The translations under genes were made by a program, and so were the position numbers. The notes under the pieces were generated by a model. That model had not been told where the DNA came from. It did not search any database and saw nothing but the letters and a program-made list of their open reading frames with translations. A stretch of DNA of 63,864 bases, filler included. It is 8 parts of 8 records of this genome, joined end to end, with 100 filler letters (N's around TTAATTAATTAA, not from the genome) between each part and the next. Parts side by side here need not be neighbours in the genome. Positions count along the whole stretch, not along the records: positions 12,485 to 20,601 come from SRR31156797_42593; 7 more parts are not named here. One strand, 5' to 3'. Shown here one piece after another: positions 5,701-58,750 of this stretch (positions within the stretch are counted from its first letter, which is position 1; every line of letters begins with the position of its first letter).

Positions 5701-5800
5701 NNNNNNNNNNNNNNNNNNNNNNNNNNNNNNNNNNNNNNNNNNNNTTAATTAATTAANNNNNNNNNNNNNNNNNNNNNNNNNNNNNNNNNNNNNNNNNNNN
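5701..5800. other. Artificial contig spacer
   Basis: N-run containing TTAATTAATTAA (stops in all six frames). Confidence 0.99.
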
Positions 5801-12384: not shown

Positions 12385-12484
12385 NNNNNNNNNNNNNNNN
12401 NNNNNNNNNNNNNNNNNNNNNNNNNNNNTTAATTAATTAANNNNNNNNNNNNNNNNNNNNNNNNNNNNNNNNNNNNNNNNNNNN
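12385..12484. other. Artificial contig spacer
   Basis: N-run with TTAATTAATTAA. Confidence 0.99.
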
Positions 12485-12832
12485 CCCCCAAAAAAAAATA
12501 AATATCATTTTCACCTTGGCCATAGACCTTCAGGTCAAAAAAATAATATCAAAAGTTTTCTCCTGGGCGCAGCTCCGGACATATAATTAATATTATTTTT
12601 GCTTTGAGCAACCCAAACCTGACCCTAAAAAATATTCTGACCTTATCTCGGAAATCCAAAAAAATCTTAGCCCAGTTGGATATCGCAAAAAGAAGAATTG
12701 GCAAGGCTTTTCTGTCTTTTTTGCTTGATTCGTTAAATAAACTGTGATTGTATGAAATCGATTATTCAACCGACTCTTTGTTCTATTAAAGGATCGAAGA
12801 AATAATCGAAATTATTAACATAGAGATATATC

Positions 12833-13036
12833 ATGCCAAAGACTATATTGCATAAATCGATTAAAGAGCTGTTTCAAGATGTTCCATTCTTGACGCAAGC
12901 AGATGTCGCAAAGAAGACAAACAAGGATAAAGTAAGGATTGCCGGCTTTCTCGATGCAATGGTGGAATATGGTGATTTGGCGGTCAAGAAGGTGGGGAAC
13001 TCCAAGGTTTATTATTTGAAAAAGCAAAGTAATTGA
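12833..13036 (+). CDS. Small winged-helix protein, probable regulator of the R-M operon
   Basis: 67 aa: LTQADVAKK..helix..G.L...KVGNSKVYYL wing pattern; ends 6 nt before the MTase start. Confidence 0.65.
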   Translation: MPKTILHKSIKELFQDVPFLTQADVAKKTNKDKVRIAGFLDAMVEYGDLAVKKVGNSKVYYLKKQSN

Positions 13037-13042
13037 TAAGAG

Positions 13043-14785
13043 ATGGATTTGAAAGAAGTTATAAAAGGCCTTCAAACACCTGAGAAACATGATTCTATTT
13101 GTTTTGCCAGGTCATTTACTTATGCTGTTCTAAAAGAATATTGGGATAGGTATCGGGATTCCTTAGCAACTATTAGCAAAAAACAAATCCGAAAACTTTT
13201 CAAAGAGATCAAGATAAATGAACAAACTTCGTTAGATCAAGAGATTTCTGCCAAAAAAATAGGATCTCAGTTGTGCACTAATGATGTTGTTAAAGCTGCG
13301 TATTATATTGGTAGCGTGTATACTGCTTTGTTACCGCCAAAATACAGATCTCAACATGGAATCTATTTTACACCACCTGCTTTAACTAACAGATTGATTG
13401 ATACTGCTGAAAAAGCAGGCGTTAAGTGGAAGACGGCAAAGGTATTGGACCCTGCTTCAGGCGGAGGAGCTTTTATTGCTCCTGTAGCGTTGCGGAAAAT
13501 CGAAGCACTTAAGAAACTATCTCCTCAACAGACAGTTGATCATATCAGAAAAAATCTTCATGGATTTGAGATTGATCCCTTCTCGGCATGGTTATCCCAG
13601 GTGTTCCTTGATATGGTCCTCTTAGAAATCTGTTGTTCGGTCAAGCCGATGCTTACACTTCCAAAGTGTGTCAAAATAATAGATTCTCTGGATACAAAAC
13701 CTAAAAAACCAAGGTATGACTTAGTGATAGGGAATCCCCCTTATACTAAGATCAAACTTGAACCAAAGAAGCGTGAAAAATATGAACGTAGCTTGTATGG
13801 ACATGCCAACATGTACGGGCTTTTTACAGATCAGGCTCTCCATTACACAAAAAATGAAGGAGTGATAGCTTATATTACTCCAACAAGTTTTTTATCAGGG
13901 CAGTATTTCAAAAAGCTTAGGGGCCTGCTTGGTAGCCAGGCACCACCAACTAATATTGATTTTGTAAATGACCGTTCCGAGGTTTTTGCAGGTGTTTTGC
14001 AAGAGACTTTACTTGCCACTTTTGTGAAGGGTGGTAAAAAAACGGTAGGGACTTCGAATACGCTGAGAATTAATTCTCCAGAATCTTTAGAAGTGATTGA
14101 AGCTGGGAAATACCGAATTGATCTCAAAGCTACTGATATCTGGATCATTCCGAGGACAATAGAGCAGTCTGAACTCGTTTTACAGATGGCTAAAATGCAT
14201 GAGCGGTTGAGCACTTATGGGTACACTGTAAAGACAGGGCCTCTTGTTTGGAACAGACATAAAGAACAGTTACGAAAAGTGTCTAAAAATGGTTCTTTCC
14301 CAATTATTTGGGCTGAGTCTGTAACAAGAGATGGAAAATTCAAGTTTAGAGCTGAAAAAAAAAATCATGTTCCTTATTTTAAAGTTGGTGAAAAAGACCA
14401 ATGGCTGATGGCCTATGAACCTTGCATAATTTTACAAAGGACTACGGCTAAAGAGCAGCAAAGGCGGCTAATTTCTGCGTTAATTCCCCAAAATTTCATG
14501 AAGAAACACAAATCAGCTATAATTGAGAATCATTTAAACATGATCAAACCAATTAAAAAACAGCCTGAAATTTCACCAAAAACATTGCATTTTATTCTTA
14601 ACAGCGAAATAGTAGACCAGGCTTTTCGATGTATCAATGGTTCTGTGGCAGTCTCTGCGTATGAACTTGAATCACTGCCTTTCCCTTCTTTAGAGACAGC
14701 GAGGAGAATTGAAAAAATGATTGGCGATAAGGTTGATAAAAAACTAATCTCTCAAGAGATTGAAAAAGGATATATTGATGACTGA
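13043..14785 (+). CDS. Type II N6-adenine DNA methyltransferase, gamma class (M.BsuBI/M.PstI-like)
   Basis: GIYFTP, LDPASGGGAF (motif I), GNPPY (motif IV), FR..NGS..VSA.EL C-terminus; coupled to a BsuBI/PstI-like REase. Confidence 0.9.
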   Translation: MDLKEVIKGLQTPEKHDSICFARSFTYAVLKEYWDRYRDSLATISKKQIRKLFKEIKINEQTSLDQEISAKKIGSQLCTNDVVKAAYYIGSVYTALLPPKYRSQHGIYFTPPALTNRLIDTAEKAGVKWKTAKVLDPASGGGAFIAPVALRKIEALKKLSPQQTVDHIRKNLHGFEIDPFSAWLSQVFLDMVLLEICCSVKPMLTLPKCVKIIDSLDTKPKKPRYDLVIGNPPYTKIKLEPKKREKYERSLYGHANMYGLFTDQALHYTKNEGVIAYITPTSFLSGQYFKKLRGLLGSQAPPTNIDFVNDRSEVFAGVLQETLLATFVKGGKKTVGTSNTLRINSPESLEVIEAGKYRIDLKATDIWIIPRTIEQSELVLQMAKMHERLSTYGYTVKTGPLVWNRHKEQLRKVSKNGSFPIIWAESVTRDGKFKFRAEKKNHVPYFKVGEKDQWLMAYEPCIILQRTTAKEQQRRLISALIPQNFMKKHKSAIIENHLNMIKPIKKQPEISPKTLHFILNSEIVDQAFRCINGSVAVSAYELESLPFPSLETARRIEKMIGDKVDKKLISQEIEKGYIDD

Positions 14786-15857
14786 TATGCACCCGCTGCT
14801 GACCTGGGAAGAGATTCATACTCGTTTAGAAATGATTTTTCAGGAAGGTATCCCAAACAGAGGATATTCTATCCGGGAGATGGCTGCTAAGACTGTATTC
14901 ACCATGATTTATATCGGAGCAATCGAGAAAAATGATATTTGGCTCCGACCTGACCAGGTTACTAAAATGACTGATGAACAAGCGGCCTTGGATTCCAACC
15001 AAGATCGTGCAAATTGGCTGAAATCGTCTATGAAACCCTCCAAAGTGTCCATAGACGGTAGGTGGTATGCTCAAAACACCCGTGAACCAATCCGGGATGA
15101 AACAATAAGACAGGGCCTTGCCTTGCTTGGAGCGGTTGTTGAAAAAACAGATCTACCAACGACATCCCCCAAAGGTCGTTATGCTTTACAGCTTGATTTT
15201 TCACTATTATTTCAACCCGATTTGGATGAGAGTAAACTGCAAGACCGAATTAGAAACTGGCAGACAAATAATCTATCTGCTGGTGCTCTTGCCAGGGTCA
15301 CCCTTGTGAGGAAAGCTGCAGTGGCAACAACTGGCGGGATTTTAACCACTTTTCCAAATGGCGAAACTAGAAGATTAGCTGCTGGCCCAAGTTCTATCAT
15401 TTCAAAAGCTGTTATTGAAGATTTCGCTCCAAACTACTTAATAAAACCCGCTGTTTTATGGTTGAGTGAGAGCGCTACAAAAGAGGACCGCCGAGATGCG
15501 GATCTTGCTGATGCTTTGGGCCTAAAAATAGAAGTTGATAAAAATCTTCCTGATATCATTCTTGTAGATTTAGGACCAAAAGATCCTTTGATCATTTTCA
15601 TTGAGGTGGTCGCATCAGACGGGCCAGTAAATGAAGTGCGAAAGAAAATATTTCTGAGGCTGGCAACTGATGCAGGATTCAAACAAGATCAGATAGCTTT
15701 TATAACAGCATATAAGGATCGTGAAGATCCTGCATTCAAAAAGACTTTCTCAGTGCTGGCTTGGCAATCTTTTGCCTGGTGCATGTCTGAACCAGAAAAA
15801 ATAATAGGATTGCATGTAATTCAGCAAGGACAGCACCTTACAGATTTGATTACTTGA
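14778..15857 (+). CDS. BsuBI/PstI-family type II restriction endonuclease
   Basis: WYAQNTREPIRDETIR, TTSPK.RY, PDIIL...FIEVVASDGPV...R (PD-ExK-like) and LAWQSFAW motifs; overlaps the MTase stop. Confidence 0.88.
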   Translation: MTDMHPLLTWEEIHTRLEMIFQEGIPNRGYSIREMAAKTVFTMIYIGAIEKNDIWLRPDQVTKMTDEQAALDSNQDRANWLKSSMKPSKVSIDGRWYAQNTREPIRDETIRQGLALLGAVVEKTDLPTTSPKGRYALQLDFSLLFQPDLDESKLQDRIRNWQTNNLSAGALARVTLVRKAAVATTGGILTTFPNGETRRLAAGPSSIISKAVIEDFAPNYLIKPAVLWLSESATKEDRRDADLADALGLKIEVDKNLPDIILVDLGPKDPLIIFIEVVASDGPVNEVRKKIFLRLATDAGFKQDQIAFITAYKDREDPAFKKTFSVLAWQSFAWCMSEPEKIIGLHVIQQGQHLTDLIT

Positions 15858-16038
15858 GATAATTAGACAAAGAATAACAGAAAAGTAAGAATAACAAATT
15901 AATTGACTACCATTTGATTTGCGGCAATAATCCTTTTCGTAGCGGGTATGATTTCAGTCCTATTCCTATGGATTCCAATTTTTATAGGGAATTCTTTAAT
16001 TTCAATGTTCTGCAATTATTATTCAAGGAGCATCTTTC

Positions 16039-17895
16039 ATGAGGCTAAAAAGAGTTAGGCTAAAGAATTTTCGCTGTTATAGAGAAGAAGCAACCTTCAA
16101 TATTGATGACCTCACGGTTTTTGTTGGTAGAAATGATATCGGCAAATCAACTCTTCTTGATGCCCTTCAGATCTTTTTTGAAGAGGGCAAAATTGATGCT
16201 GATGATGCTACAATCAACGGCGATAAAGAGGACGTTCGAATAGTTTGTGAATTTGAAGACTTTCCAGAAGATATCGTAATTGACACGGATTATCCAACTT
16301 CATTGGAAAAAGAATTCATGCTCAACGAAAAAAAACGGTTGGAAATTCACAAAGTTTACAACGGTGCCTTGAAAACTCCGAAACTAAAGTCAACGATAGC
16401 CGTTGCAATGCATCCAACAGATCCTGATGCAAGTGATTTGCTTCTCTTAAAAAACAAAGGACTTAAAGAGCGGGCAAAAAAAATTGGTGCGAGTCTTGAT
16501 GGTATAGATCAGAAAATAAATTCTAAGCTGAGGCAAGTAATTTGGTCTTCTATTCCGGATTTAAAAATCAGTAAGTCTGAGATTCCACTTGCTAAAGAAA
16601 CCGCCAAAACAGTTTGGGATCAGCTTAAAAAATACATGCCTAGTTATGCACTTTTTAAATCAGACAGGCAGAGTACAGACCAAGACATAGAAGCTCAAGA
16701 TCCTATGAAACAAGCCATTAAAGAAGCCATTAAGACCCAACTTGAAGAGCTCTCCGATATTGAAGACAGAGTAAATCAGCAGGTAACAGAGATAGCAAAT
16801 AAAACGGTTAAAAAATTACAAGAAATGGACCCTGAGCTTGCAGAGCAATTAACGCCCAGGTTTTCAACACCTGCATGGGCAAACGTTTTCAAAGTAAGTT
16901 TAACAGGCGATGACCAGGTCCCCATAAACAAACGGGGAAGTGGTATACGTCGATTAATCCTTTTAAATTTTTTCAGAGCGAAAGCAGAAAAGGCCGCACA
17001 TGAGAAGGGTGCGCCTAAAGTTATTTATGCGATAGAAGAACCGGAGACAAGTCAGCACCCAAACAATCAAAAAATGCTTATGAAAGCATTCCATGAGCTG
17101 GCTGCTAATCCGGATTGTCAAGTGATTTTGACAACGCATAATCCTGCTCTTGTTCGGAACGTACCGAGCAATTTGATTCGTCATATCTGCCATTCTGAAG
17201 ATAAAGAATGCCGAGACATACTTTATGGTGATGAGACCATCTATGACTCATTGATAAAGGAGCTGGGGATATTACCGGATCATGATGTAAAATTATTCAT
17301 TGGTGTTGAGGGAATTAACGACATCAACTTTTTGAAAAGAATGTCAAAAGTTTTAAATGGAAACGGTCTTGAAGTCCCAGATTTAGATGATCTTGAAAAA
17401 AAGGGACAAATTATTTTTATACCATGTGGCGGTAGTAATCTGTCTCTATGGGCATCAAGATTAGCGGGCTTAAACAGACCGGAATTTCACCTCTTTGATA
17501 GAGATGTTGAACCGCCAAAAGTATCAAAATATCAATCCGTAGTAGATTCAATAAATGAAAGAGATAATTGCATAAGTAGTCTGACCGAAAAACGAGAGAT
17601 GGAAAATTATATTCATCCCGATGCGATAGCGGCAGTGAAACCAGGCCTTAATGTATCATTCGACCCCTTTGATGACGTACCTGCAGTAGTTGCGAAAGCG
17701 GTACATGAAATCTCAGATTCAACAAAGTTGTGGGACGAAGTCAAAGAAAAGAAACAAAAGGAAAAAGCTCGTAAGGCTAAGGTGTGGTTAAATCAAGAAG
17801 CTGTGGCGAATATGACACCCGAACTGTTGCAAGCAATTGATGAAAATGGTGAAGTGATTGGATGGTTTCAAACCATTTCCAAATTCACTGAATAA
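16039..17895 (+). CDS. OLD-like ATP-dependent nuclease (ABC/AAA_15 ATPase fused to a TOPRIM domain)
   Basis: Walker A GRNDIGKS, RGSG signature, Walker B IEEPE..QHP, TTH, then VEGIND, FDRD and REMENY TOPRIM motifs. Confidence 0.85.
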   Translation: MRLKRVRLKNFRCYREEATFNIDDLTVFVGRNDIGKSTLLDALQIFFEEGKIDADDATINGDKEDVRIVCEFEDFPEDIVIDTDYPTSLEKEFMLNEKKRLEIHKVYNGALKTPKLKSTIAVAMHPTDPDASDLLLLKNKGLKERAKKIGASLDGIDQKINSKLRQVIWSSIPDLKISKSEIPLAKETAKTVWDQLKKYMPSYALFKSDRQSTDQDIEAQDPMKQAIKEAIKTQLEELSDIEDRVNQQVTEIANKTVKKLQEMDPELAEQLTPRFSTPAWANVFKVSLTGDDQVPINKRGSGIRRLILLNFFRAKAEKAAHEKGAPKVIYAIEEPETSQHPNNQKMLMKAFHELAANPDCQVILTTHNPALVRNVPSNLIRHICHSEDKECRDILYGDETIYDSLIKELGILPDHDVKLFIGVEGINDINFLKRMSKVLNGNGLEVPDLDDLEKKGQIIFIPCGGSNLSLWASRLAGLNRPEFHLFDRDVEPPKVSKYQSVVDSINERDNCISSLTEKREMENYIHPDAIAAVKPGLNVSFDPFDDVPAVVAKAVHEISDSTKLWDEVKEKKQKEKARKAKVWLNQEAVANMTPELLQAIDENGEVIGWFQTISKFTE

Positions 17896-17992
17896 AGTTA
17901 ACGATTTTCGATTTCCATGAAAATAGGCACAGACTCGTGGGGAATTCACCCTAAATGTTTAATGGAACCCAAAGTCCGGAAAACATGGCCGT

Positions 17993-18012
17993 CACCACCA
18001 TTTTTGGTGGTG
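17993..18012. repeat. Perfect inverted repeat CACCACCA-TTTT-TGGTGGTG (copy of the type-B repeat)
   Basis: Seen directly, just past the stop of the C5 MTase. The same motif recurs at 19021, 19051 and 19115. Confidence 0.85.
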
Positions 18013-18020
18013 GCACCTGG

Positions 18021-18806
18021 TTAATTGTTTACGGCCTGGGCTTTTTGCTTATCTCTTTGCCTTTGTGCCCGTTTACGGCAAGCTGGACTATCATACTTTG
18101 CCCGGCCATAAACAACACGACCGCAGCCGCATGAACAACGGTTTACAGGTTCGGCTTGAATTATTTTTGTTTGGTCTTTTTTTTTATAAAAGTCTTTCAG
18201 GATAAGGCTTGCCAGATAGCGGCCTAAAGGCAGCGGCACACCGTTGGCAATGGCCTTTTTTTTACCTTCCAGGGAAAAAAAAGGAATGTCAAAATCTTTG
18301 GGCAGACCTTGAATATCACAACATGCCCGGAAGGATCGGGCATCGTTGCCCACAACTGCCCCGCCCGAAACATTACCTTTCTTTCCTTTTATCGGGTCAA
18401 GCAATTGACCAGATAAAGAACCGAATATAAAATGGCGGTTCCTGGAAAAATCCGTAAACCAGGACAAGTCTAATTCAAATCGTTGTTGTGTGTAGCCGTC
18501 TATTTGAAAATTGGGAAAGCCCGCGACATTTTCACATAAAAACCACTGAGGCCGGGCAGCGGCCACAACCCGGCAGTATTCTTTTAACATCTCATCGCCG
18601 TATCCAGTAGGGTTACGGTTCAATTTTGAAAAATCTTGACAGGGAGGGCCACCGATTACACCGTCAAAGACACCTGGTGGCGGGGTGAAATTGCGAATAT
18701 CTCCTCCGGTGATCAGATCCGGGGAGCGAACAACACAAAACCCATTTTTTTCAAAACCCATTCCAAGCATGTCAATCCCGGGAAATAATGATAATAGCAG
18801 TTTCAT
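18021..18806 (-). CDS. Minimal DNA (cytosine-5) methyltransferase with C-terminal Cys-rich (putative Zn) tail
   Basis: SLFPGID (variant motif I), GGPPCQDFS (IV), ENV (VI), R.R (VIII), QGLP..F (IX), ANGVP (X). Only about 30 aa between VIII and IX. Tail CSCGCG...YDSPACRKRAQR. Confidence 0.85.
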   Translation of the reverse strand: MKLLLSLFPGIDMLGMGFEKNGFCVVRSPDLITGGDIRNFTPPPGVFDGVIGGPPCQDFSKLNRNPTGYGDEMLKEYCRVVAAARPQWFLCENVAGFPNFQIDGYTQQRFELDLSWFTDFSRNRHFIFGSLSGQLLDPIKGKKGNVSGGAVVGNDARSFRACCDIQGLPKDFDIPFFSLEGKKKAIANGVPLPLGRYLASLILKDFYKKKDQTKIIQAEPVNRCSCGCGRVVYGRAKYDSPACRKRAQRQRDKQKAQAVNN

Positions 18807-18829
18807 GATTTAAAAGTATCATGAAAAAT

Positions 18830-18996
18830 TGTGACTTGTCCAGGACAAAAACCGTGACAACCCGGGGAAAAGAAATGTGACCGAGCTCAGCTAAATTTTG
18901 TGACTGCCCTGGAGGAAAAACCGTGACGCATCGATCGCAAGTTATGTGACCCGCCGGCAAATAAAAGTGTGACTATCCGGATACGAAAAATGTGAC
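18830..18996 (+). repeat. Array of 8 YGTGAC anchors at exact 23-bp period with variable palindromic spacers
   Basis: GTGAC starts at 18831, 18854, 18877, 18900, 18923, 18946, 18969 and 18992. Each is preceded by an A/T tract; the 18-nt spacers all differ. Confidence 0.93.
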
Positions 18997-19020
18997 CTCA
19001 AAATTGAAATTTCCGATTGT

Positions 19021-19141
19021 TACCACCATTTTTAATGGTGTTGGATCCGTCACCACCAAAAATGGTGCTGCAGGAGAAATTTTTTTTAAACTCGATTAAA
19101 AAATTTCTGGCCATTACCACCATTTTTGGTGATAATGGCCA
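19021..19141. repeat. Three YACCACCA-N4-TGGTG-type inverted-repeat units upstream of the adenine MTase
   Basis: TACCACCATTTTTAATGGTG (19021), CACCACCAAAAATGGTGCTG (19051) and TACCACCATTTTTGGTGATA (19115, inside a larger TGGCCATTA...TAATGGCCA palindrome at 19108-19141). Confidence 0.85.
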
Positions 19142-19142
19142 T

Positions 19143-19826
19143 ATGAAAACTAAAAAAACATATCCAGGGGGGAAGGCAGGGAACGGGGTTTATCAGTCAA
19201 TTATTAACCTCATGCCCCCGCATGATACTTATATTGAAACTCACTTGGGCGGTGGTGCGATCCTTCGGAAGAAACGCCCTGCTGTTCGAAACATTGGTAT
19301 TGACATTGATTCTGCTGTAATTGATTGTTGGTCACAAAATCAGGCGTTGAATTTCAAGCTGCATAATGGGGATGCTGTAAAATTTTTGAAGCGGGAAATT
19401 TTTACAGGTCGAGTATTAGTCTATTGTGATCCTCCGTACTTGAAGAAAACCCGAAAAACCGGGAAAATATACCGGTATGAATACACCGAAAAACAACATA
19501 TAGAACTTTTGGATTGTATTAAAAAATTAAACTGCATGGTGATGATTTCCGGATATTATTCTGATCTGTATGCTGAAAAATTGGACGGGTGGAACGTCCG
19601 GACATTCCAGGCTCAAACCAGGGGAGCGAAACCAGCCACGGAATATGTTTGGTTTAATTTTGAGGAACCGATTTTGCTTCATGATCCGAAGTACATAGGC
19701 CGAGATTATCGGGAAAGGGAACGGATTAAAAAGAAGGCTGTTCGATGGGTTAAGCGGTTTGAAGCTCTTCCTAAACTTGAAAAGCAAGCTATTATGGTTG
19801 CTTTAAAAAAAAGTGGGATATTTTAA
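19143..19826 (+). CDS. Minimal Dam/D12-class N6-adenine DNA methyltransferase
   Basis: YPGGK (motif X), YIETHLGGGA (I), GIDID (II), YCDPPY (IV), MISGY and TEYVW. Very short segment between II and IV; basic helical C-terminal tail. Confidence 0.85.
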   Translation: MKTKKTYPGGKAGNGVYQSIINLMPPHDTYIETHLGGGAILRKKRPAVRNIGIDIDSAVIDCWSQNQALNFKLHNGDAVKFLKREIFTGRVLVYCDPPYLKKTRKTGKIYRYEYTEKQHIELLDCIKKLNCMVMISGYYSDLYAEKLDGWNVRTFQAQTRGAKPATEYVWFNFEEPILLHDPKYIGRDYRERERIKKKAVRWVKRFEALPKLEKQAIMVALKKSGIF

Positions 19827-20024
19827 AAAAATATCCCTTCCTTTTATAAAACGCCGTAGGCGTTCAATCAGTCTTGATGATTTTTGAAAAAAATCTACCT
19901 TATCTCCTGGGAGCAATAGAAAACCCCGAAAGGATATTTTTCCTCCGAGGTTGGGTTACAGTGCAAGCCGCAGTAAGCGGCTTGCTTCAGTTATGGGCGA
20001 AGCCCATCGAATTTTTTTAAAAAT

Positions 20025-20261
20025 TTAGCTATCGTTATTATCTATTTCATCTAGACATTTTTTTAATTCTTCATCAATAATATGTAGCTTTACCCGAAGG
20101 GCTGAAACTTCTTGCTGTAATTTTCTTTTCTGCTGCCCTAATCTTATAAAATTATTTACAACATGGGCCACCAATCCGGTCCCTGTCCGAATTTTAAGCT
20201 CCTTTTGCAAATTTGCAATCTGTTTAAGCGTATCTTTATCCCGGATTTGAACAATCCGCAT
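20025..20261 (-). CDS. Small hypothetical protein (possible ribbon-helix-helix plus coiled coil)
   Basis: 78 aa with G-rich RBS; N-terminal beta-like MRIVQIR, two helices, then a heptad-rich tail. Confidence 0.5.
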   Translation of the reverse strand: MRIVQIRDKDTLKQIANLQKELKIRTGTGLVAHVVNNFIRLGQQKRKLQQEVSALRVKLHIIDEELKKCLDEIDNNDS

Positions 20262-20601
20262 ATAATATCCCCCCCAAGGCAATAAAAAAGGTCAAAACAG
20301 GCTCCCGCTGTTCTGAGAACCTGTTTTGACCTTTTACCCTAAAACGCCTGATTTTATCAAACGCCCTTGCTTCCGGGTTTAGGAAGCATAACCCTTCTGC
20401 CCAAGGGGTTTGATACCATTTAGGGTAATTATGAATGAAAGTCAATCTTTTTAGGGCAAAAATGCTACCATTATTTTTTATTACAATTTTTAAAAAAAAA
20501 TTAAATATGCCACGATATAAAAAATATTTAACAGGGCATGATCTTGATTTTAGACCCCAAGTTCAGGATATGGCCGCATACCAGATGTTGTGGTTGGGGA
20601 T

Positions 20602-20701
20602 NNNNNNNNNNNNNNNNNNNNNNNNNNNNNNNNNNNNNNNNNNNNTTAATTAATTAANNNNNNNNNNNNNNNNNNNNNNNNNNNNNNNNNNNNNNNNNNN
20701 N
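20602..20701. other. Artificial contig spacer
   Basis: N-run with TTAATTAATTAA. Confidence 0.99.
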
Positions 20702-26946: not shown

Positions 26947-27046
26947 NNNNNNNNNNNNNNNNNNNNNNNNNNNNNNNNNNNNNNNNNNNNTTAATTAATT
27001 AANNNNNNNNNNNNNNNNNNNNNNNNNNNNNNNNNNNNNNNNNNNN
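26947..27046. other. Artificial contig spacer
   Basis: N-run with TTAATTAATTAA. Confidence 0.99.
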
Positions 27047-42069: not shown

Positions 42070-42169
42070 NNNNNNNNNNNNNNNNNNNNNNNNNNNNNNN
42101 NNNNNNNNNNNNNTTAATTAATTAANNNNNNNNNNNNNNNNNNNNNNNNNNNNNNNNNNNNNNNNNNNN
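42070..42169. other. Artificial contig spacer
   Basis: N-run with TTAATTAATTAA. Confidence 0.99.
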
Positions 42170-49886: not shown

Positions 49887-49986
49887 NNNNNNNNNNNNNN
49901 NNNNNNNNNNNNNNNNNNNNNNNNNNNNNNTTAATTAATTAANNNNNNNNNNNNNNNNNNNNNNNNNNNNNNNNNNNNNNNNNNNN
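49887..49986. other. Artificial contig spacer
   Basis: N-run with TTAATTAATTAA. Confidence 0.99.
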
Positions 49987-58650: not shown

Positions 58651-58750
58651 NNNNNNNNNNNNNNNNNNNNNNNNNNNNNNNNNNNNNNNNNNNNTTAATT
58701 AATTAANNNNNNNNNNNNNNNNNNNNNNNNNNNNNNNNNNNNNNNNNNNN
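58651..58750. other. Artificial contig spacer
   Basis: N-run with TTAATTAATTAA. Confidence 0.99.

Follow-up and report, generated by a model that had tools for sequence, protein, structure and literature searches.

The GTGAC Array and Its Spacers

The window analysed here is a 63.9-kb stretch of DNA made of contigs joined by N44-TTAATTAATTAA-N44 linkers (5701-5800, 12385-12484, 20602-20701, 26947-27046, 42070-42169, 49887-49986, and 58651-58750); one of these contigs carries a short repeat array next to the gene of a small C5 DNA methyltransferase, P0001. The array occupies 18830-18996 on the plus strand and, from sequence reading and a count of motif spacings, is composed of eight YGTGAC anchors with an exact period of 23 bp, starting at 18830, 18853, 18876, 18899, 18922, 18945, 18968, and 18991. 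The seven spacers between them start at 18836, 18859, 18882, 18905, 18928, 18951, and 18974, and all contain a restriction-site palindrome: in order, TTGTCCAGGACAA, CCCGGG, GAGCTC/AGCTCAGCT, CCTGG, ATCGAT/CGATCG, GCCGGC, and TATCCGGATA. The pattern GTGAC-N18-GTGAC occurs seven times across the window, every time within the array, against a mean of 0.05 in shuffled sequence, with seven copies reached in 0/100 shuffles.

As for the position of the sites, each spacer has a cytosine five nucleotides after the anchor, and the resulting column (18840, 18863, 18886, 18909, 18932, 18955, and 18978; 18840-18978, plus strand), also found in other loci, is the proposed catalytic target position. At +5, spacers 2, 6, and 7 have the inner C of CCGG, spacer 4 has the inner C of CCTGG, spacer 3 the C of AGCT, spacer 1 the outer C of CCAGG, and spacer 5 the C of TCGA; the eighth anchor (18991-18996) is not followed by a site and has A at +5. 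The first-pass annotation had described one palindrome per spacer and the C at +5, and had assigned the site cytosine at this position for spacers 2, 3, 4, 6, and 7; both descriptions agree with the sequence, the former in 7/7 spacers. The first unit, TTGTCCAGGACAA, is a 13-base palindrome.

With the window only, the probability of obtaining any invariant column was 0.016 when whole spacers were shuffled and 0.005 when shuffling was limited to their first 12 nt, the GC-rich part; perfect 6-bp palindromes are present in five of the seven spacers, a count reached by 10/20000 shuffles. Taken alone, these statistics are suggestive. Tandem Repeats Finder, run on the window, did not report the array because just 6 of every 23 positions are conserved.

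The Methyltransferase P0001 and Its Zinc Ribbon

P0001 (18021-18806, minus strand) is a 261-residue protein that, from its family profile and fold, is predicted to be active as a C5 cytosine DNA methyltransferase. It matched PF00145 with 55.6 bits (cut-off 22); its translation contains GGPPCQ and CENV, which hold the PPCQ and ENV motifs, and residues C56, E92, N93, and V94 are invariant across 47 homologues. The AlphaFold model (predicted local distance difference test score, pLDDT, of 93) has the core of a C5-methyltransferase, followed by a linker, a Cys4 ribbon, and a long basic helix; the top Foldseek matches were M.HaeIII and M.HhaI (E-values 4e-12 to 1e-9, template modelling scores 0.62-0.67), with DNMT3 also among the best.

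The variable region is very short: where the target-recognition domain is expected, the model has about 28 residues (131-158) with no regular structure, placed between a strand (123-130) and a helix (159-165), and nothing like the tandem target-recognition domains of multispecific phage C5-methyltransferases was found in the protein. Structure model and fold comparison thus bear out the earlier description of the enzyme as poor in target-recognition sequence. The C-terminal zinc ribbon is encoded at 18060-18137 (minus strand; CSCGCGR...ACRKRAQR), and the homologue alignment defined its invariant cysteines as Cys224, Cys226, Cys228, and Cys243; it matched no Pfam family, and it is the proposed reader of GTGAC.

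Arrays of the Same Design in Other Genomes

The same design is present in 18 further loci, which include Desulfospira, Kiloniella, a cultured Pseudoalteromonas corticovirus, and about 10 uncultured phage contigs. GTGAC arrays adjoin relatives of P0001 in Desulfospira, a Desulfobacteraceae metagenome-assembled genome (MAG), and Kiloniella laminariae; site cores such as TTGTCCAGG, GCATCGATCG, CCTGG, GAGCTC, and the CCGG variants are common to the arrays of these relatives, in differing order and number. A scan for four GTGAC at 23-bp spacing returned 41 viral and at least 110 metagenome stretches; among the matches listed, most (roughly 130 loci, left out of the unit counts) were true tandem repeats with near-identical spacers, and the chains with variable spacers were nearly all of the kind found in the window. 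Three further loci were left out before the counts since their arrays are identical to those of L014/L016 (L025, L026, and L036), and four as different repeat types, in which GTGAC recurs within the spacers or the site lies at the spacer 3′ end (L027, L031, L057, and L033).

In the 78 unique inner units that 16 loci provided, C occupied +5 in 73 and a pyrimidine preceded the anchor in 77. The replication set, from which units shared with the window were excluded and to which the phage GXT1010 and two further Kiloniella arrays were added, comprised 84 unique units from 18 other loci: the +5 base was C in 79/84 (background C 0.29; binomial p about 2e-36), and a palindrome spanned this position in 77/84 (shuffle mean 43.5; reached by 0/2000 shuffles). 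Enrichment of both features in homologous arrays was the check that the first-pass annotation had proposed, and this replication removes the worry that the +5 column had been noticed post hoc. The five exceptions have T (three units), A, or G, and the three T would weakly fit deamination of 5-methylcytosine (m5C). No other spacer column is fixed to the degree of the +5 C, and lone GTGAC motifs of the same contigs show no preference, with C at this position in 47/210 cases.

The vocabulary of the sites is narrow: CCWGG, CCGG and its six-base forms, GCCGGC, GCWGC, GGCC, GGGCCC, AGCT/GAGCTC, TCGA/ATCGAT/CGATCG, CACGTG, and CGCG. We take these to be the usual targets of m5C restriction-modification systems, and in most of them the +5 C is presumably the base methylated by the cognate enzyme. 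One and the same site occurs at two offsets, always with a C on +5 (CCWGG at 4-8 or 5-9, CCGG at 4-7 or 5-8, and GCCGGC at 3-8 or 4-9), so that its outer or its inner C is brought there in separate units; GCAGC and GCTGC are both present. As read from the sequences, the two offsets would fit a strand-specific and position-specific act on the +5 base. Six-base palindromes of the spacers are extended to eight bases in 23/50 cases (25% expected).

Mean pairwise identity between spacers is 0.40, and among related genomes the site cores are kept and the units are reshuffled, gained, and lost; most arrays have one anchor more than sites. Kiloniella laminariae (G015) holds several related arrays in one genome (C8 8145-8379 and 27968-28156, C9, C12, and C31), one 377-bp contig of it consists of an array alone, and three contigs end in identical first three units; the arrays seem to break the assembly. 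A variant array, with RGTGAC anchors and the site at the spacer 3′ end instead of +5, was found in L033 (3579-3652, minus strand), with the sites GGCGCC, CGGCCG, GAGCTC, CGATCG, and then CTCGAG; no methyltransferase is encoded on this 4.7-kb fragment.

High-GC phage contigs have many copies of the listed sites outside the arrays (GCCGGC 45 and GGCC 173 in L026). No general pattern of site avoidance was found in the array-bearing contigs, CCWGG being the sole depleted site, in four low-GC contigs (e.g., observed/expected 2/11.5 in L008, 0/4.8 in L023, and 2/9.2 in L040). GTGAC/GTCAC outside the arrays is neither enriched nor avoided. Rfam gave no family on the 8.1-kb contig of the array, with four sub-threshold matches to microRNA models (E-values 0.3-0.5). 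Among sequencing runs, none of RNA was listed for the locus, the only match being a DNA run that may be the source of the assembly.

Association of the Arrays with the Ribbon-Bearing Enzyme

The locus scan with the full-length P0001 alignment gave L161-L177 as the true relatives among the matches listed, and scans with P0013 and P0037 as queries gave no match. At E-values below 1e-30, the ribbon-bearing homologues form 193 clusters. Relatives that lack the ribbon (L163-L170 and L172-L177) had a GTGACx3 array in 0/14 whole records, and relatives with the ribbon, found by protein similarity alone, had an array in 9/13 records: Desulfospira, the MAG contig, Kiloniella, GXT1010, G012, L259, G029, L261, and L262. 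The association has a Fisher p of 1.5e-4, in a set where L260-L262 are close relatives and five records were read at the locus only. The sole GTGACx3 array in the 6.1-Mb Desulfospira genome adjoins the methyltransferase gene; conversely, of five viral records found via the array alone, three encode the enzyme elsewhere and the remaining two are fragments of 6-9 kb. The array accompanies the ribbon enzyme across very different phages, with no other common gene seen, and from the sequences compared the arrays appear to track one subfamily of 261-residue C5-methyltransferases with a tiny target-recognition region and a conserved C-terminal zinc ribbon.

Location of the Arrays and Promoter Context

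With respect to the methyltransferase gene, arrays are upstream and antisense in the window, L001, L044, and GXT1010, upstream and sense in L021 and L023, and downstream and sense in L008, L002, and L016; in L016 and L026 they flank a two-methyltransferase module on both sides. Some lie near ParB-like or integrase genes, and terminator-like hairpins were found at the sense-strand end of the arrays of L160, L023, L044, and L004.

In the window, a methyltransferase promoter of the sigma-70 type is predicted at 18815-18842 (minus strand), with TGGACA as -35, GATACT as -10, and the ATG about 8 nt further. The predicted -35, on the complement of unit 1, overlaps the CCAGG of this unit, and the first anchor lies between -35 and -10; the same layout is predicted in L001.

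A different arrangement occurs in L259-L262, where the array has a period of 24 bp, so that the reading frame is kept. Arrays of this kind lie at 2191-2267 and 2899-2975 in L260, and also occur in L259, L261, and L262: one copy finishes at the methyltransferase's GTG start codon, and another is inside the open reading frame (ORF), where it codes for a linker of VT-x6 repeats ahead of the zinc ribbon and retains CCAGG/CCGG with C at +5. At the level of the sequences, these in-frame arrays would argue for selection on the nucleic acid and for tolerance of 23 or 24 bp.

Neighbouring Genes and a Second Panel

The contig of the array (12485-20601; 8.1 kb) has a GC content of 0.39, with values up to 0.64 in the neighbouring contigs, and it could represent a mobile element or derive from a different organism within a bin. 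Domain matches identified on its plus strand an N6-adenine methyltransferase (13043-14785) and a BsuBI/PstI-family endonuclease (14760-15857), which together span 13043-15857; with an AAA_15 ATPase, this complete PstI-family pair fills 13043-17895 beside the module, and CTGCAG occurs in the second panel described below, at 19067. The endonuclease, the N6-adenine methyltransferase, and the AAA_15 gene are absent from L001-L004, and in the phage loci no endonuclease adjoins the methyltransferase gene; a cognate endonuclease conserved beside the methyltransferase, as in Type II restriction-modification systems, was accordingly not found. In the closest relative, L001 (Desulfospira joergensenii), the only recurring parts are the pair of small methyltransferases, the array and the inverted repeats, together with a 78-residue ORF.

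The second of these methyltransferases, P0002 (19143-19826, plus strand), is by domain match a 227-residue D12-class (amino) DNA methyltransferase, and locus comparison found this partner conserved in L001, L008, L016, L025, and L026. The 78-residue ORF (20025-20261, minus strand) matched no family and, among all loci, was found in L001 only.

Between the array and P0002 lies a second panel (19020-19142, plus strand), with three inverted repeats of the ACCACCA-N5-TGGTGGT type and one AT-rich inverted repeat, that reaches the start of the D12-like gene. The sites between its repeats are GGATCC (19043), CTGCAG (19067), CTCGAT, and TGGCCA (19108 and 19135); caution is needed with TGGCCA, which doubles as a predicted -35 and is replaced by TTGCCA in L001. 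In L008 (10010-10190, minus strand), CATAG-N10-CTATG repeats are separated by CTGCAG, CTCGAG, GGATCC, TGGCCA, and CAGCTG, and the position 3 nt ahead of the following repeat is taken by the A in both CTGCAG and CTCGAG and by the inner C in GGATCC. Repeats of the CATAG-N10-CTATG type are also present in Kiloniella (L254 1-120), a Methylomonas plasmid (L270 about 2130-2520), and L033 (3400-3560 and 3780-3800, minus strand), with CTGCAG, CTCGAT, GATATC, GGTACC, and CCGCGG as sites. These inverted-repeat panels upstream of P0002 homologues may point to a habit that is general among minimal phage methyltransferases. The inverted repeat CACCACCATTTTTGGTGGTG has its fourth copy just past the stop codon of P0001 (17993-18012), with the GTGAC anchor contained in the half-site TGGTGGTGAC.

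A Proposed Docking-and-Substrate Panel

Our preferred reading, held tentatively and at somewhat less than even chances, is that the array acts in cis as a panel of docking sites and substrates for the zinc-ribbon C5-methyltransferase encoded beside it, and that it works as a methylation gauge feeding back on the expression of this enzyme. The steps of binding, methylation, and feedback that we infer would run as follows. The zinc ribbon and the basic helix would bind each YGTGAC anchor, and docking would put the recognition-poor catalytic domain over the cytosine 5 nt downstream, which would be flipped and methylated irrespective of its context. As the +5 C forms part of sites recognised by widespread m5C-sensitive restriction systems, the array would become a strip of these sites, each marked or probed on one top-strand cytosine. 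Anchor occupancy would in turn be set by prior methylation at +5, from the own enzyme or from host enzymes of the listed specificities; this feedback is favoured as the purpose because the anchor sits in the predicted promoter or on the GTG start codon.

Docking would explain why the C is invariant, why one site occurs at two offsets, why the strands are not equivalent, why the rule is confined to arrays, and why arrays are linked to the ribbon. The first-pass annotation had offered two models, and its interpretation is supported in part. In the one where the enzyme docks on GTGAC and methylates at a fixed offset, the docking component gains indirectly from the comparative data (link to the zinc-ribbon subfamily, +5 C specific to arrays), and the proposal that the methylated sites serve as decoy or bait is not supported, given that such sites are plentiful elsewhere in high-GC phage contigs and occur at two offsets. 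The other, where the panel reads the methylation or restriction state of the host, is compatible with the promoter predicted through unit 1 in the window and in L001; a simple switch of divergent promoters is not, because arrays are found far from the gene, in either orientation, and even inside coding sequence.

Several points weigh against the docking-and-substrate panel. It gives no reason for genuine restriction sites or for the extension of palindromes to 8 bp, and it leaves unexplained that the list is maintained and edited in unrelated phages and that arrays stand beside terminase genes. The +5 C might also be contacted as part of a longer bipartite motif, and not be a substrate. Four of the 13 ribbon-bearing enzymes had no array in the sequence examined (G006, G026, G027, and the Methylomonas plasmid L270, the last within ±2.5 kb), and the variable-spacer chains left out of the counts break the +5 C rule (kept in 3/4 units of L027, 1/3 of L031, 0/3 of L033, and 0/4 of L057). 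Furthermore, a promoter comparable to that of the window was not predicted in L160 (GXT1010) or L023. Finally, some arrays are 7-37 kb from the gene, and three adjoin lambda-type large terminase (gpA) genes, in either orientation (L010 2471-2636, L014 about 1255-1445, and L029 12169-12218); a pure promoter gauge is therefore insufficient.

Alternative Explanations

Arrays of short direct repeats are familiar binding sites of repressors, and the anchor inside the predicted promoter would also suit an operator array for a separate regulator, either the product of the 78-residue ORF or a host factor; the methyltransferase would then not dock at all, and the sites would be methylation-sensitive switches, written by host or phage methyltransferases and tuning the binding of the regulator. 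That some ribbon-bearing enzymes have no array, and that the ORF accompanies the module in both the window and L001, agree with this explanation, which we nevertheless consider unlikely: no locus other than L001 has this ORF, which has no family match, the array follows the ribbon enzyme and no other common gene seen across very different phages, and a reader of methylation needs no single exact C offset in every type of site. Less probable again is that GTGAC, as a GTSAC-type motif, is the methyltransferase's own recognition sequence and the array a cluster of its targets, with the +5 C and the palindromes serving other ends. A recognition sequence of five bases would suit the small recognition region, and methyltransferase promoters with clustered cognate sites are known; however, the two strongest features, the +5 C (79/84) and the site vocabulary (77/84), are left unexplained, the motif is neither enriched nor avoided outside the arrays, and the anchors all point in one direction although GTSAC is symmetric except for its centre. 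We give very little credence to generic iterons, that is, replication-origin, partition, packaging, or recombinase arm-type sites near methyltransferase genes by chance. The direct repeats are indeed regular, the lambda Int arm-site consensus contains GTCAC, and some arrays lie by terminase, ParB-like, or integrase genes, but the contig of the window and L001 have no Rep, Par, or integrase gene, such sites offer no reason for a different restriction site in each spacer, and some arrays are inside an ORF. Adjacent Rep/Par genes together with near-identical repeats, as expected of iterons or centromeres, are not what was found, the spacer identity being 0.40.

The content of the array is best explained by a further alternative, in which it is a catalogue of specificities: as DNA or as a processed transcript, it would be an information store that programs P0001 to methylate the listed sites genome-wide, on the cytosine marked at +5, with the consequence that one enzyme of 261 residues would shield the phage from many restriction systems. 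The units correspond to the commonest m5C-type targets, the site cores are kept while units turn over, and the outer and the inner C of one site have units of their own, as have GCAGC and GCTGC. Likewise in its favour, there is mostly one anchor more than sites, as with repeats and spacers in CRISPR (clustered regularly interspaced short palindromic repeats) arrays, the arrays act as autonomous modules in any orientation and position, some with terminator-like hairpins, and the abundance of the listed sites in high-GC phage genomes implies that they would need protection. Nonetheless, no known mechanism would let 4-8 nt direct a methyltransferase to sites in duplex DNA; what is fixed is the C on the array strand itself, and the mirror position in a paired target would range from +4 to +9; arrays in the enzyme's own ORF and antisense in late operons are awkward for a processed RNA, for which there was no Rfam match either; and the depletion of CCWGG in low-GC carriers suggests that CCWGG sites are unprotected genome-wide. 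We thus regard the catalogue as improbable, and place in the same low range its broader form, an evolvable DNA-encoded list resembling CRISPR for modification, with the second inverted-repeat scaffold doing likewise for the amino-methyltransferase.

Three purposes for the sites were rejected. Decoy or bait as the main purpose disagrees with the frequency of the listed sites elsewhere in high-GC phage contigs, and it is further weakened because methylation of one C leaves a unit exposed to enzymes that are blocked only when the other C is methylated. A natural polylinker, from which host endonucleases would excise the cassette, would be cut at the same sites inside the gene (CCCGGG at about 18777-18782, and CCGG and CCTGG within 18650-18720). 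Protection of the array itself from cleavage is at odds with one site having its outer C at +5 in one unit and its inner C in another.

Significance and Comparison with Known Systems

Full-text literature searches, whose coverage stops short of subscription journals and supplements, returned no description of such arrays; the design looks like a so far undescribed means of linking a methyltransferase to a restriction-site list encoded in DNA, and the nearest known systems, compared below, differ from it in kind. If docking is true, the system would be a natural tethered methyltransferase, in which a zinc ribbon directs a tiny catalytic core to a position at a fixed distance from an anchor of 5 bp. 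The part that docking does not explain is the more interesting one: beside minimal methyltransferases, unrelated phages keep a DNA list of the restriction sites most met in bacteria, and their relatives edit it. Should this list be a sensor of methylation, of the host or of the own enzyme, it would represent a new kind of epigenetic regulatory element in the arms race between phage and host; should it be a catalogue of specificities, it would mean that sequence can be recognised on a new principle, and would offer a compact tool for programmable methylation. These possibilities are directly testable, the carriers including the cultured Pseudoalteromonas phage GXT1010 and two cultured bacteria.

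Among known systems, multispecific C5-methyltransferases are found in the Bacillus phages SPR, phi3T, rho11s, and H2, with GGCC, CCGG, CCWGG, GCNGC, and GAGCTC as targets. They resemble P0001 in being phage-borne, orphan, and directed at several restriction systems, and their targets overlap the vocabulary of the arrays; in contrast, their specificities are domains of a larger protein, whereas the list of P0001 is written in the adjacent DNA. The self-repressing methyltransferases (M.SsoII/M.Ecl18kI, M.MspI, and M.EcoRII, along with methylation-sensitive promoters of the CfrBI type) share an extra DNA-binding part, an operator in their own promoter, and a target cytosine that overlaps a promoter element; they differ in having one operator or cognate site, while GTGAC arrays have 4-13 phased anchors, each with a different heterologous site, and some are far from the gene.

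The similarity with CRISPR arrays consists of constant repeats and variable, information-rich spacers, mostly one extra repeat, turnover of units, and occurrence in phages. On the other hand, a GTGAC anchor has 5-6 bp, only 4-8 of the 17-18 bp in a spacer matter, and what the spacers match is restriction sites instead of invaders; among the neighbours scanned, cas genes or domains were not found, and the conserved repeat is 6 nt, compared with the repeats of about 21 nt or more and the adjacent cas genes of CRISPR-Cas. Arrays bound by ribbon-helix-helix and centromere-binding proteins (omega heptads, ParR/parC) likewise consist of a 5-7 bp motif in many phased copies, to which the proteins bind cooperatively, but there the repeats abut and the spacers hold no information.

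Regarding the enzyme, the catalytic domains of DNMT3A/3B are structural neighbours of P0001 with a minimal recognition region; they differ in being eukaryotic, CpG-directed, and targeted by chromatin-reading domains. A parallel to docking is given by fusions of methyltransferases with zinc fingers, TALE, or dCas9, engineered for targeted methylation (the topic of PMC3404938), in which a sequence-specific DNA-binding module tethers a weakly specific C5-methyltransferase to a cytosine at a set distance; those fusions are artificial, whereas the array system would be a natural one, with its own docking sites.

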